A stretch of DNA of 64,000 nt from an uncultured Clostridium sp. (GCA_947565445.1 CANOGC010000002.1:4631-68630); one strand, 5' to 3'; numbered from the stretch's first letter, positions 17,473 to 36,620 are shown. The notes: generated by a model not told the origin, from the sequence alone. A program made the numbers and translations.

Positions 17473-17619
17473 TTAAGGAAATAGTATATAAATATCCACG
17501 AACCGTCGCCATTCCCCAATGAAACTGTACAAAATGTGTAAACACATTTTGACGGTTTCTATTGGTCCCCACTTATGGCTCCGAGATTCTTCGTGGGTAT
17601 TTATATACTATTTCCTTAA
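17473..17619 (+). repeat. Rod-like hairpin repeat, copy A (conserved core 17496-17596)
   Basis: Outer arms TTAAGGAAATAGTATATAAATATCCACGAA / TTCGTGGGTATTTATATACTATTTCCTTAA. The core CCGTCGCCATTCCCCAATGAAACTGTACAAAATGTGTAAACACATTTTGACGGTTTCTATTGGTCCCCACTTATGGCTCCGAGATTC is shared with copies at 31862, 35531 and 36477. Confidence 0.85.
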
Positions 17620-17680
17620 CAATAATCTAAGTATATCAAAAAGCAAATTTTTTTACAATAGAGACTATACATTTTACAAA

Positions 17681-17721
17681 AAATCCGATATAATAAAAAT
17701 AGACGTTAAAATTCGGCAAAA
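17681..17721. promoter_or_regulatory. Possible PurR operator (inverted PurBox-like pair) upstream of purF
   Basis: AAATCCGATATAA (17681-17693) and AAATTCGGCAAAA (17709-17721) form an inverted pair of CCGA/TCGG-centred A/T-flanked boxes about 15 nt apart. This resembles the B. subtilis PurBox arrangement. The match is imperfect. Confidence 0.3.
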
Positions 17722-17743
17722 TTCTACGTAAAGGAGAATAAAT

Positions 17744-19162
17744 ATGTTTCGCAAATTAAAAGAAGAATGTGGAATATTTGGTATATATTCTATGGAAAAT
17801 GAAGCAGAATTAGCAAGCATCACTTGTGCAGGGCTTTCAAGCTTACAACATAGAGGAGAAGAGGCATGTGGAATTGCAGTAAATAGTGGAGGAGTAGTTT
17901 CATATCATAAAGACGTAGGGCTTGTTTCAAGTGTATTTAAACCACATATAGTAGATAGCTTACCAAAAGGAAAAATATCAATTGGGCATGTTCGTTATTC
18001 AACAACAGGAGCACCTAAAAAAGAAAATGCACAACCAATTGTTACAAGATATGCAAAAGGAAATTTAAGTATTGTACATAATGGAAACCTTGTAAATGCA
18101 ATGGATTTAAAAGAAGAACTACAAAATGCAGGAGCCATTTTTAATTCAACAAGTGATACAGAAGTTATAGCATACCTAATTGCAAGAGAAAGGCTAAAGA
18201 CTCATTCAGTAGAAGAAGCAATTAAAAATGCAGTAAAATACATAAAAGGAGCATACTCATTATTAGTAATGTCATCTAAAAAACTAATTGCTCTAAGAGA
18301 TCCACAAGGATTTAGACCATTGTGTATGGGTAAACTTGGAGATGATATTGTTTTTGCATCAGAAAGTTGTGCACTAGATACTATTGGTGCAGAATTTGTA
18401 AGAGATATTGAACCAGGAGAAATGGTAATTGTAACTGATAATAAAGTAACATCTACATTCTATAGTAATGAAAAAAATGATGGATTATGTATTTTTGAAT
18501 ATATATATTTAGCAAGACCAGATTCAACAATAGATGGATTAAATGTTCATAAATTTAGAAAAGAAGTAGGAAAATACTTAGCTCGTCAAGCACCAGTAGA
18601 TGCAGATATTGTAGCAGGTGTTCCAGACTCTGGAAATGATGCGGCACTTGGATATTCAAAAGAATCTAAAATACCATATGACATGGTATTTATAAAAAGT
18701 AAATACATAGGAAGAACATTTATCCTTCCAACACAAGCACAAAGAAAAGCAAAAGTAGCACTAAAATTAAACCCAATTAAAGAAAATGTAAAAGACAGAA
18801 AAATAGTATTAGTAGATGATTCTATTGTTAGAGGAACTACTATTACCAGAATTGTTCAAACATTAAAAAAAGCAGGAGCAAAGGAAGTACATTTACGTAT
18901 TGCTTCACCTGCATATACAGATATTTGTTATTTTGGAACTGATGTCGCAGACAAAAAGAGTTTAATTGCAAATAATAAAACAGTAGAACAAATAAGACAG
19001 GAAATAGGAGCAGACTCACTAGAATATTTGAGCATGGAAAGTTTATTAGAAATTGCAAAAAAATCAAAAAGAGGTGGATTTTGCACAGGATGTTTTACTG
19101 GAAAATATCCAATAGATGTGCCAGATGAAATACAAAAAGAAAGATTTGAAAAAATATTTTAA
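17744..19162 (+). CDS. purF: Amidophosphoribosyltransferase
   Basis: N-terminal CGIFGI (Ntn cysteine), the PRTase motif VLVDDSIVRGTT and C-terminal Cys ligands, in 472 aa. Confidence 0.93.
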   Translation: MFRKLKEECGIFGIYSMENEAELASITCAGLSSLQHRGEEACGIAVNSGGVVSYHKDVGLVSSVFKPHIVDSLPKGKISIGHVRYSTTGAPKKENAQPIVTRYAKGNLSIVHNGNLVNAMDLKEELQNAGAIFNSTSDTEVIAYLIARERLKTHSVEEAIKNAVKYIKGAYSLLVMSSKKLIALRDPQGFRPLCMGKLGDDIVFASESCALDTIGAEFVRDIEPGEMVIVTDNKVTSTFYSNEKNDGLCIFEYIYLARPDSTIDGLNVHKFRKEVGKYLARQAPVDADIVAGVPDSGNDAALGYSKESKIPYDMVFIKSKYIGRTFILPTQAQRKAKVALKLNPIKENVKDRKIVLVDDSIVRGTTITRIVQTLKKAGAKEVHLRIASPAYTDICYFGTDVADKKSLIANNKTVEQIRQEIGADSLEYLSMESLLEIAKKSKRGGFCTGCFTGKYPIDVPDEIQKERFEKIF

Positions 19163-19177
19163 AAAGAGGTAGGTAAA

Positions 19178-20779
19178 ATGAACACAAAATATGTATTTGT
19201 AACAGGAGGAGTTGTATCAGGACTTGGAAAAGGAATCACTGCAGCTTCACTTGGAAGATTGCTAAAAAATAGAGGATATAAAGTAACAATCCAAAAGTTT
19301 GACCCATATATTAATGTAGATCCAGGGACAATGAGCCCATTTGAACATGGAGAAGTTTTTGTAACAGATGATGGAGCAGAAACAGACTTGGACTTAGGAC
19401 ATTATGAGCGTTTTGTAGACGAAAATTTAACAAAAAATTCTAGTATTACTACTGGAAGAATTTACTCTAATGTAATTGAAAAAGAAAGAAGAGGGGATTA
19501 CTTAGGAAGAACAGTCCAAGTAATACCTCATATTACAAACGAAATTAAAGAAAACATATATAGTTTTGAAAATGATGATATTGATGTAGTTATTACTGAA
19601 ATTGGAGGAACTGTAGGAGATATAGAGGGGTTACCTTTCTTAGAGGCGATTCGTCAAATTGGGTTGGAAAAAGAACCAGAAGATGTAGCATATATCCATG
19701 TTACTTTATTACCATACATATTTGGCTCAAACGAAATAAAATCTAAACCTACACAACATTCCGTAAAAGAACTACAAAGCTTAGGAATTAAGCCAGATAT
19801 TCTAGTATGTAGAACAGAAACAGACATACCAGAAAGTGTAAAAGACAAACTAGCTCTATTTTGTAATGTACGTAAAAGCCGTGTTATTCCAAATAAAACA
19901 GCAGACAACCTATATGCTGTACCACTAATGCTAGAAGAAGCAGGTCTTGCAAGAGAAATATGTGAAAAACTACATTTAGATAAAAAAGAACCTAATAATA
20001 GTGAATGGGAAAAAATGATTGAAGATATTAGAAAAATAGATGATGTAAAAACAGTAAATATTGCAATAGTAGGAAAATATATTCAATTAGAAGATTCATA
20101 TCTTTCTGTTGCAGAAAGTGTTACACATTCAGGGTTTGCAAACCATGTTAAAACAAAAGTTACATTTATAGATTCCGAAACTGTTACTAAAGATAATGCT
20201 AAAGAAATACTACAGGGACTAGATGGAATAATTGTGCCAGGTGGTTTTGGAAACCGTGGAATAGAAGGAAAGATTCAAACAATACGTTATGCAAGAGAAA
20301 ATAACATACCATTTTTAGGAATTTGTCTTGGTATGCAAATGGCAGTTGTAGAATTTGCAAGAGATGTATTAGGAATACAAGATGCAAATTCAGCAGAATT
20401 TGATGAAATCTGTAAAAATGCAGTTATTCATATTATGGATGATCAAATAGGAATTGACAAAAAAGGTGGAACTATGAGGCTTGGTGCATATCCATGCAAA
20501 ATAAAAGAAGGAACTTTAGCACATAGTATTTATGAAAAAACAGATATATCAGAAAGACATAGGCACCGTTTTGAATTTAATAATGAATATAAACAACAAG
20601 TTGAAGATGCTGGAATGATATGTTCAGGAACTTCACCAGATGGAAGATTAGTAGAAATTGTAGAAATACCATCACATAAATTCTTCATTGCAGGACAATT
20701 TCATCCAGAATTTAAATCGAGACCAAACCGTCCATCACCATTATTTAAAGCATTGGTTAAGGCTGCAAAAGGAGAATAA
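19178..20779 (+). CDS. pyrG: CTP synthase
   Basis: [17 protein letters not shown] and the GATase triad region GICLGMQ.. ..HRHRFEFN, in 533 aa. Confidence 0.95.
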
Positions 20780-35513: not shown

Positions 35514-35530
35514 AAATTATATGATATAAA

Positions 35531-35674
35531 GCTATAAATCTATAAAAATATCCACGAACCGTCGCCATTCCCCAATGAAACTGTACAAAATGTGTAAACA
35601 CATTTTGACGGTTTCTATTGGTCGCCCACTTATGGCTCCGAGATTCTTCGTGGAGATTTTTATAGATTTATAGC
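35531..35674 (+). repeat. Rod-like hairpin repeat, copy C
   Basis: Outer arms are GCTATAAATCTATAAAAATATCCACGAA and TTCGTGGAGATTTTTATAGATTTATAGC. The core is identical to A apart from GTCGCCCAC versus GTCCCCAC. It starts 18 nt after the recoded dnaE stop. Confidence 0.85.
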
Positions 35675-35773
35675 TAAAAAAGAAAAACATCTTATAAATC
35701 TTCACAAATTAGACACAGAGGCAATGTATAATGTATAAATAATATTTCTTAAAGTAACGGAGAGTGATAAGAT

Positions 35774-36454
35774 ATGAATAATGTAACAGTTCTTGTTGTT
35801 GATGATGAATCTAGAATGAGAAAATTAATTAAGGATTTTTTAGTACAAAAGGAATTTCAAGTTATAGAAGCAGAAGACGGTGAAAAGGCTTTAGAGGTAT
35901 ACCATGAAAACCAAAAAGAAATAGGGCTAATCTTGCTAGATGTAATGATGCCAAAACTTGATGGATGGTCTGTATTAAGGCAAATTAGGCAAGAATCTAA
36001 AGTTCCAATTATAATGCTAACTGCAAGAGGGGAAGAGCAAGATGAATTATTTGGCTTTGAACTAGGTGTAGATGAATATATATCAAAACCATTTAGCCCT
36101 AAAATATTAGTAGCAAGGGTAGAGGCTATTTTAAATAGAACAAGAGGAAGTAAAAACGAAGTTAAGGACTATGGTGGAATCGAAATTGATGTAGATGGTA
36201 GAACTGTAAAAGTGGATGGAAAAGAAATAGAAATGAGTTTAAGAGAATATGAGCTATTAAAGTATTTAGTAGATAACCAAGGAATTGCACTATCAAGAGA
36301 TAAAATTTTAAATAATGTATGGAATTATGATTATTATGGGGATTCAAGAACAATTGATAGCCATATAAAAAAGATAAGACATAAGTTAGGTAAAAAAGGA
36401 AAATATATTGAAACAATGAGAGGCGTGGGATATAAATTTGAAATTAAGAAATAA
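35774..36454 (+). CDS. OmpR/PhoB-type response regulator
   Basis: Receiver domain (VLVVDDE.. LLDVMMPKLDG) plus a winged-helix output domain (..LSRDKILNNVWNYDYYGDSRTIDSHIKKIRHKL.. RGVGYKF). Confidence 0.9.
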   Translation: MNNVTVLVVDDESRMRKLIKDFLVQKEFQVIEAEDGEKALEVYHENQKEIGLILLDVMMPKLDGWSVLRQIRQESKVPIIMLTARGEEQDELFGFELGVDEYISKPFSPKILVARVEAILNRTRGSKNEVKDYGGIEIDVDGRTVKVDGKEIEMSLREYELLKYLVDNQGIALSRDKILNNVWNYDYYGDSRTIDSHIKKIRHKLGKKGKYIETMRGVGYKFEIKK

Positions 36455-36476
36455 GGCTTGCAATTTCAAATGTACA

Positions 36477-36620
36477 TAGATAATAGTATATAAATATCCA
36501 CGAACCGTCGCCATTCCCCAATGAAACTGTACCAAATGTGTAAACACATTTGGACGGTTTCTATTGGTCGCCCACTTATGGCTCCGAGATTCTTCGTGGA
36601 GATTTATATACTATTATCTA
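36477..36620 (+). repeat. Rod-like hairpin repeat, copy D
   Basis: Outer arms are TAGATAATAGTATATAAATATCCACGAA and TTCGTGGAGATTTATATACTATTATCTA. The apical hairpin is CCAAATGTG-TAAA-CACATTTGG, an A-U to C-G compensatory change relative to A and C. It sits in the 216-nt spacer between the response regulator and the kinase. Confidence 0.85.

Follow-up and report, generated by a model that had tools for sequence, protein, structure and literature searches.

Correia elements of Neisseria and ERIC repeats of the Enterobacteriaceae are palindromic miniature inverted-repeat transposable elements (MITEs) of 100-160 bp that occupy intergenic and operon positions and are co-transcribed as hairpins, and the Correia hairpins are targets of RNase III. 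ERIC-type repeats have terminal inverted repeats and TA duplications, and bcr1 of the Bacillus cereus group, about 155 bp long, has 5-bp duplications, is transcribed and shows compensatory changes (PMC3184786). REPINs, which form long hairpins of conserved modules with compensated stems as single-stranded DNA (ssDNA) or mRNA, have been read as a replicative unit (PMC3116915), and repetitive extragenic palindromic (REP) sequences are palindromes of 20-40 nt whose foot bears a conserved GTAG or CGTC tag and which have an associated RAYT (PMC3733652). The subject of this study is a hairpin repeat found in four copies (A to D) in a 64,000-nt stretch of DNA from an uncultured Clostridium sp. (GCA_947565445.1, CANOGC010000002.1:4631-68630), hereafter the window. 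The repeat is a real feature of moderate weight, a new family of a known type, the MITE-type hairpin repeat. It is distinguished from the known hairpin MITEs by a conserved centre between variable arms, by nesting in different shells, by inversion of its core and by 8-bp duplications. The explanation favored here, and held to be probable, is that these are small non-coding palindromic elements of a new MITE-type family in which the complementarity of the arms arises mainly through DNA-level template switching or recombination, together with gene conversion, while the asymmetry of the core is probably kept by selection.

An earlier note on this sequence had placed four copies in the window, all of them intergenic and in the same orientation. 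All four were recovered on the + strand at these places (Table 1), as a 28-mer (CCGTCGCCATTCCCCAATGAAACTGTAC) and a 17-mer (GACGGTTTCTATTGGTC) each matched the window exactly four times at up to three mismatches (chance expectation 0.00 and 0.03, respectively), and a covariance model built from 46 family members detected no copy in the window beyond these. Copy A lies between purN and purF, copy B between an S4-domain gene and dnaE (ending about 25 nt upstream of the dnaE start), copy C between dnaE and a response regulator gene, and copy D between the response regulator and a histidine kinase gene. The coordinates of copy B were adjusted, as its arms extend slightly further (31857-32003) than first given (31862-31998). 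In this window, with a G+C content of about 28%, each copy folded as a single rod with an RNA free energy of -62 to -71 kcal/mol and z-scores of -11.8 to -12.8 on the + strand and -8.7 to -10.4 on the - strand, and the DNA folds (-38.6 to -41.8 kcal/mol) were about equal on either strand. The core, about 88 nt long, is an imperfect palindrome made up of an apical hairpin, a helix from which a T bulges out, an asymmetric C-rich internal loop with TCC facing TC(N)CCCAC, and a GCCAT/ATGGC helix. When aligned over the four window copies, it differs only in the apical hairpin and in one 1-nt indel (GTC-CCCAC vs GTCGCCCAC); this indel had been reported before, as had the apical compensations of copy D (CCAAATGTG/CACATTTGG) and copy B (CAAAATGC/GCATTTTG), all of which the alignment bears out. 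With regard to the internal loops that had been called conserved, TCC and TC(N)CCCAC do hold across species, whereas CCGTC and TCCGAGATTC are lineage-specific. An ATG-initiated frame is present in the core, but a coding reading was dropped because the 1-nt indel and a 2-nt apical length variant break it, in agreement with the previous view that there is no conserved open reading frame (ORF).

The arms of the window copies are 28-31 nt long and 96-97% complementary within each copy, and their sequence differs among copies. Across the family, the core is flanked by near-perfect inverted repeats of 25-35 bp, and the hairpin measures 137-160 nt, or about 250 bp where a shell is included. The arms of copies B and C, which had been described as entirely different, were found to be diverged homologues of a single arm consensus, approximately TAGGTAATAGTATATAAATATT, that is common to several species.

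The distribution of the family outside the window was established by scanning species-representative genomes with the pattern CCCCAATGAAAC-N(15-45)-GTTTCTATTGG, which returned 39 copies from four uncultured Clostridia/Clostridium metagenome-assembled genomes (MAGs), namely CAQDYY (MGBC121045, mouse gut), CALXRX, CAOJKP and CAOJFV. Over orthologous kilobases, the first of these (MGBC121045) and the window are about 93-95% identical. A scan of metagenomes added four true copies from a CAOJKP-like organism, while five further matches (L038, L040-L042 and L044) represented one unrelated GC-rich locus and were rejected. In all, the MAGs, contigs of ERZ777305 and the window itself gave 47 copies from five related lineages of uncultured Clostridia, all of them intergenic. 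The core pattern had no match in the viral contigs scanned, blastn against plasmids and phages gave no match to the element, and a full-text literature search for the core strings yielded only chance matches to human and rat primers. Rfam gave no match over the window at the gathering score and, with E up to 10, just chance matches to microRNA precursors far below threshold, so that no known ribozyme or riboswitch family fits, in keeping with the earlier note, which had matched the core to neither; a tRNA/tmRNA scan found none. Because no Rfam, plasmid, phage, viral or literature match was obtained, the family appears to be undescribed and narrowly distributed, being confined to a few related uncultured gut Clostridia. 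Copies B, C and D lie within 5 kb of one another (31857-36620), and six other loci (L014, L019, L026, L023, L004 and L003) hold two copies 1-5 kb apart. This clustering is far above what is expected at about 10-20 copies per genome, which suggests local hopping or local duplication.

Many public short-read contigs (L058-L064, L067-L069, L083, L084, L087 and L088) begin or stop within the core of the element, and the repeat therefore fragments assemblies of the organism. In practical terms, which are modest, metagenome assemblies break at housekeeping loci, and the element marks a small clade of uncultured mouse-gut Clostridia.

Transposon-type features were found in CALXRX, where the hairpin sits within a larger unit that has conserved 17-bp terminal inverted repeats (GTTAMWGTTCAGACTAT) and two short unique segments. 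Target duplications of 8 bp, AT-rich in composition, were seen at at least nine CALXRX copies (for example AAATGATT, AAAAAATA, ATTGGATA, GAAATTAT, TATTAATT, TATTATGT, AACTTTTT, TATTATTA and ATATTATG), and a shell from which the hairpin has been deleted keeps both of its ends and an 8-bp duplication of its own. A different sub-terminal module (CCGCTCC... / ...TTCGCGCTA) was present outside the arms in CAOJKP and in one CAOJFV copy. As the variable arms are enclosed by conserved terminal modules in both CALXRX and CAOJKP, they belong to the element and not to the target, and a derivation of the arms from target DNA was ruled out. The family is small, non-coding, multi-copy and dispersed, with terminal inverted repeats, represented by the 28-31 bp arms in the window copies and by the outer repeat in CALXRX, and with presence/absence polymorphism at orthologous sites, and the hairpin in CALXRX is a genuine MITE. 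The earlier note had reserved the name of an ordinary MITE for elements whose terminal repeats and target duplications match a resident insertion sequence (IS); both repeats and duplications are present in CALXRX, and no resident IS was identified.

The systems introduced above are the closest known to the family. Like bcr1, it is an intergenic repeat of a Firmicute with a similar size, direct-repeat flanks, a strain-variable distribution, a long double-stranded fold and compensatory changes (PMC3184786). It differs in having duplications of 8 bp instead of 5 bp, and no invertible conserved core between variable arms has been described for bcr1, from which the family is set apart by description, no sequence relation having been seen. 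Its size, palindromic structure and intergenic or operon positions also recall Correia and ERIC elements. In those, however, the ends are conserved and the centre is variable, which is the reverse of the arrangement seen here, and there is no sequence similarity to them (no Rfam, plasmid or phage match). Correia elements furthermore carry promoters and an IHF site, whereas promoter and terminator scans detected no promoter-like or terminator-like site inside any element of the present family in either orientation, for which reason readings of it as a mobile promoter or as an intrinsic terminator were dropped. With REPINs it shares a hairpin built from conserved modules, the stem of which is preserved through compensation; unlike REPINs, which have conserved ends (two REPs), a compensated spacer, a link to RAYT and no target duplication, it has its conserved part in the centre, and its CALXRX copies carry terminal inverted repeats and 8-bp duplications. 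Membership of the REP or REPIN families was rejected, given a hairpin of about 145 nt, no RAYT seen and a CGTC tag confined to the window/MGBC lineage, the last of which alone sets it outside the CGTC-tagged REP super-family. Integron attC sites were likewise rejected, as the geometry is reversed (conserved centre, variable ends) and the flanking genes are housekeeping genes (purF, dnaE and a two-component system).

The complementarity of the arms had previously been taken as a sign that a hairpin, as RNA or ssDNA, is under selection and that the repeat is not simply a decaying MITE. The compensation itself is real and strong. Covariation was assessed in an alignment of 46 copies with a consensus fold of 51 pairs, using 500 shuffles and, as a control, partners slid by 1-3 columns. 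Two-sided changes occurred at 26 of the 51 pairs, pairing was seen in 95.8% of cells (85.4% in shuffles), and 221 cells were changed on both sides where 60.1 were expected, values that none of the 500 shuffles reached; the covariation score was 0.26, compared with 0.03-0.08 for slid partners. Perfect arms of 17-35 bp were present in 26 of 42 complete copies. Orthologous copies at locus B were separated by two compensated pairs (arms AATAGTCTAT/ATAGACTATT in the window, AATAATATAT/ATATATTATT in L047 and L019) at about 95% genome identity, and in an intermediate third lineage (L046 and L048) by a single uncompensated change in the right arm. Since four independent substitutions would almost never yield two exact pairs, a directed process acts on the arms of copy B.

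The conclusion formerly drawn from this compensation, that selection on RNA or ssDNA takes the place of a MITE, is supported only in part, in view of the CALXRX shell with its terminal repeats and duplications, the Watson-Crick swaps, the flips of the core and the folding of both strands. Changes in the arms were almost all from one Watson-Crick pair to another and mostly between transversion pairs, with AT-to-TA swaps, which have no wobble intermediate, being common; one-sided G-U cells (about 18) were rare beside the 221 two-sided ones. If the repeat were a selected cis-acting structured RNA, it would be co-transcribed in the sense orientation, its duplex and C-rich loop would serve as an RNase III site, a stabiliser hairpin or a protein-binding site, and selection for pairing would compensate the arms. 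The transcribed bcr1 repeat, with its compensatory changes, offers a parallel (PMC3184786), and the copies are found within operons or at operon ends, in many cases 20-60 nt upstream of a start codon. Such a role is nonetheless considered unlikely as the source of the pairing, as G-U states are rare in the 46 copies, compensations are mostly transversion pairs, perfect duplexes of 30 bp surpass what folding energy could select, and the two strands fold about equally well. It is opposed as well by the filling of the same slots with unrelated hairpins in other lineages, by inversion of the core at orthologous sites, including the response regulator-histidine kinase (RR-HK) operon in L053, and by the lack of an Rfam match and of an internal promoter or terminator.

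Inversion of the core was seen at two orthologous loci. The window and L015 share collinear flanks at locus A, 93% identical over 5.4 kb, but have the core in opposite orientations; the reversed core was also found in L082, L085 and L086. A JGI contig (L053) agrees with the window at locus D in flank and arms and carries the entire core in reverse. In CALXRX the core occurs about equally in either orientation relative to the shell, including among copies with identical arms (L017/L035 and L018/L034). Strains that share an identical PurF or an identical kinase have one orientation each and, because of this agreement, the flips are, to judge from the strains compared, rare evolutionary events and not rapid, phase-variable switching. 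Clostridia use invertible leader switches, such as the cwpV and flgB switches of C. difficile, which favors the reading of the repeat as a multi-copy inverton, a programmed switch in which the core would be turned around between its arms by a site-specific recombinase so as to change expression of the downstream gene. The reversed cores at the two loci and relative to the CALXRX shell, together with the position of copies upstream of genes, would agree with this. It is, however, an extremely improbable explanation, as the single orientation among strains with identical flanking proteins means that flipping is rare and the arms vary among copies, unlike recombinase sites; on these two grounds inverton membership was rejected. 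Moreover, there is no promoter-like or terminator-like site in either orientation, and both orientations form the same rod.

Exchange between copies was also apparent. The orthologues of copy C in L019, L047 and L053 differ from it solely in one apical pair, which is compensated. A small number of discrete apical-hairpin alleles exist; at each of the four window loci (A to D) close lineages carry different ones, and these alleles are met again at other loci. As the alleles vary per locus and yet are shared among loci, gene conversion between copies is indicated. In the window/MGBC lineage, the arms are 68-70% identical among copies, compared with 97.9% for the core minus its apical part.

Because homogenisation of the arms and inversion of the core are both seen, compensation is of the Watson-Crick type only and the strands fold equally, a DNA-level cause is favored, and the covariation of the arms looks mainly like a by-product of concerted evolution at that level. 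A putative transposase acting in trans would spread the element. A change in one arm would be copied to the other by replication template switching or by intramolecular recombination between the arms, and the same arm-switching event could invert the core, while gene conversion between copies would keep the cores alike within a genome. The asymmetry of the core may be selected as a strand-specific hairpin, either for the propagation of the element itself or because host mRNAs that include the element are passively affected by it. Template switching between the arms of an inverted repeat is reported to homogenise the arms and to invert the spacer (PMC8604942), and quasipalindrome template-switch mutation has been documented in E. 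coli (PMC7202029). The family resembles these cases in that arm homogenisation and spacer inversion are both seen; it differs from them in that template switching is a mutational mechanism and not a family of elements, and one documented for short repeats in yeast and E. coli (PMC8604942; PMC7202029). The repeat provides a compact natural example of long inverted repeats evolving in concert (arm homogenisation, core inversion and conversion between copies) around a constrained central module, and a caution for structure-based RNA discovery, as strong covariation in palindromic repeats can stem from the DNA level.

Several observations weigh against this account. The window/MGBC copies are without the terminal shell, and no target duplication was recognisable at them either by direct-repeat search, as had been reported before for the window, or by comparison with the empty sister site, the flanks being too diverged and AT-rich for a clean junction. 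The approximately 400 kb of loci examined yielded neither an autonomous element nor a transposase whose ends match; the search for terminal repeats in these loci returned only the deleted shell and a solo end, with no solo repeat beside a transposase. A mismatch near the inner end of CCACGAA-type arms recurs and persists across lineages, which would not be expected from efficient homogenisation alone. The core + strand agrees with the sense of the flanking tandem genes in 25 of 31 cases overall, and 15 copies were co-oriented and 3 anti-oriented when only unique tandem loci outside CALXRX were counted (p about 0.0075), both tallies being based on crude ORF calls; frequent inversion should erode such a bias unless there is strand-specific selection. 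Finally, selection for pairing in large populations could also give identical compensated pairs.

Some of these observations bear directly on constraint in the core, which remains asymmetric and has not been corrected to a perfect palindrome. A divergent relative (L003:4481-4635), with perfect arms of 24 bp, differs in all of its helices, but its loops are kept on both sides (TTCCC 5' and GGTCCCCAC 3'), as are the bulged T and an asymmetry of 3 versus 9 nt. In CAOJFV, the GCCAT/ATGGC helix is replaced by GGCAT/ATGCC and GGCTT/AAGCC. The persistent mismatch, the kept asymmetry, this relative, the CAOJFV helix changes and the orientation bias suggest that a strand-specific form of the core may be under selection, as RNA or equally as ssDNA of the lagging-strand template. 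The latter is identical in sequence to the sense strand where genes are co-directional, and the two are inseparable in these data; replication direction is, moreover, a confounder of orientation relative to genes, a point that weakens the case for a cis-acting RNA. That case is otherwise helped by the orientation bias, by the loops and bulge kept in the divergent relative while all of its helices covary, and by a T-G core pair on the + strand of the window lineage, a pairing possible in that sense alone. Wobbles among single arm mismatches, 9 on the + strand and 3 on the - strand, lean in the same direction without being significant.

The conserved extrahelical T and asymmetric loops could alternatively be what a Y1/HUH enzyme recognises, together with the + strand hairpin and an unpaired foot, on the lagging-strand template in order to move the element, as in REPIN or IS200/IS605-like ssDNA elements. 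In most cases the + strand corresponds to the sense strand of genes that are co-directional and hence lies on that template, the window copies show no target duplication, and GTAG-type REPs are present in the same window. The core of the window lineage begins with an unpaired CGTC, like the CGTC-tagged REPs (PMC3733652), and REPIN hairpins likewise have compensated stems (PMC3116915). The tag is, however, not conserved, being AGTC in CALXRX and CAOJKP and CTTC in CAOJFV, and the element is 3-5 times the length of a REP. As the 8-bp duplications and terminal inverted repeats of CALXRX indicate DDE-type double-strand transposition, and no RAYT or TnpA gene was seen adjoining any copy, movement of this kind is regarded as very improbable. 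It is also conceivable, although rather unlikely, that the core is a functional, strand-specific structured module of a new class, either RNA or ssDNA, which rides different transposon shells and is kept for the binding of a host or element factor, with its orientation mattering; if so, it would add a new mobile structured element.

The loci of the window copies were compared with orthologous loci of related organisms. In species whose response regulator shows 92-96% identity, loci B, C and D are free of the family. In sister species, a gene for a helix-turn-helix protein of 138-142 aa takes the place of the element at B. Copy C is missing from L046, L048, L050, L051 and L054 as well as from sister species, in which the spacer between dnaE and the regulator gene is occupied by a terminator or a GTAG-REP. 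At D, the sister regulator and kinase genes lie 4 nt apart, with the kinase ribosome-binding site inside the regulator gene, and the purN-purF spacer is empty in a species with a 90% identical PurF (L078-L081). C and D are, in addition, absent or replaced in some strains with an identical response regulator. As sister species lack family members at all four loci, copies A-D of the window are, on this comparison, gains, and copy D has split a translationally coupled two-component operon.

Table 1. Positions of the arms and cores of the four hairpin repeats in the window (I numbers are those of the inverted repeats found)
Feature	Position	Strand	Description
Copy A left arm (TTAAGGAAATAGTATATAAATATCCACGAA)	17473..17502	+	Inverted repeat I5, 30 nt, 97% complementary to 17590-17619
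Copy A core	17503..17589	+	Imperfect palindrome with apical hairpin, bulged T and asymmetric C-rich internal loop; exact core matches, fold; covariance model 161.8 bits
Copy A right arm	17590..17619	+	One T-G mismatch vs left arm
Copy B left arm (TCTTAGGTAATAGTCTATAAATATTGAAAAA)	31857..31887	+	31 nt, 1 mismatch
Copy B core, apical allele CAAAATGCTTGCGCATTTTG	31888..31972	+	Exact core matches, fold; covariance model 170.5 bits
Copy B right arm	31973..32003	+	Inverted repeat I2
Copy C left arm (AGCTATAAATCTATAAAAATATCCACGAA)	35530..35558	+	Inverted repeat I7, 29 nt, 97% complementary
Copy C core, GTCGCCCAC variant	35559..35646	+	Alignment, core matches, fold, covariance model match
Copy C right arm	35647..35675	+	Conserved A x G mismatch near inner end
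Copy D left arm (TAGATAATAGTATATAAATATCCACGAA)	36477..36504	+	Inverted repeat I11, 28 nt, 96% complementary
Copy D core, apical allele CCAAATGTG/CACATTTGG	36505..36592	+	Alignment, core matches, fold, covariance model match
Copy D right arm	36593..36620	+	Inverted-repeat search

Other insertions were noted in the spacers that hold copies C and D. A different GTAG palindrome (GTAGGGGTCGGCGCCTTCGCCGACCC) lies at the copy C slot of a sister species (dnaE-response regulator spacer, L071 and L073). In L046, L047 and L048 (5690-5930), whose regulator is 100% identical to that of the window, the RR-HK spacer is occupied by an unrelated GC-rich element of about 170 nt that replaces copy D. It contains several hairpins (CTACGAAGCCTTGCAAG ... 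CTTGTAGGGCTTCGCAAG) and has no Rfam match, and a related piece is present in MGBC121045 (L033:2104-2142, - strand). The RR-HK junction (36454-36671 in the window, compared with L070-L077) has been enlarged at least three times, by copy D, by this GC-rich element and by an AT-rich palindromic insert of about 85 nt in L075 and L077, and the insert-bearing lineages have a common downstream ribosome-binding site, AGAAAGGAAA.

Elsewhere in the window, a second hairpin element was found at 366-528, with perfectly complementary arms of 27 bp (368-394/500-526), a centre of 105 nt, a free energy of -50.7 kcal/mol and a z-score of -7.6. It has no Rfam match and is not detected by the covariance model of the family; its basal junction (arm ...AAAAA/TTCCGT... 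and ...GGCTAAC...CTCG/TTTTT) resembles that of the family, by eye only. A truncated copy, 92% identical, occurs at a non-orthologous place in MGBC121045 (L033:304-432). REP-like palindromes tagged with GTAG (GTAGGGGCGATTATCAATCGCCCG) are present in at least three window copies (2547-2570, 15128-15151 and 41841-41864), and palindromes of the GTAG type also lie at 15141-15163 and 23119-23141 of the window and at L015:2951-2973.

Among the genes that adjoin the copies, dnaE is apparently frameshifted in the window, in the region 35340-35513, 44 codons before its ancestral end (TTCTTCTTTCGGAGATAG vs TTTTTTTCTGGTGATAGAAAC in L047), with its last 41 residues left as a separate small ORF, and the same state was seen in the independent assemblies L045 and L049; in other lineages dnaE is split near its N-terminus (120 + 975 aa). 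The purF-pyrG spacer measures 16 nt in the window (19162-19178) and 140-200 nt in close relatives (L078, L082 and L085; 2919-3120), where a promoter-like stretch occurs in it together with a terminator-like hairpin; this may be a pyrG leader, apparently lost in the window lineage. Promoter-like sites were found just to the right of copy A, at 17630-17658 (- strand) and 17666-17694 (+ strand). The minus-strand site (TTGTAA-17-TATACT, with TG) would transcribe across copy A into purN, and copy A would therefore sit in antisense orientation in the purN leader.

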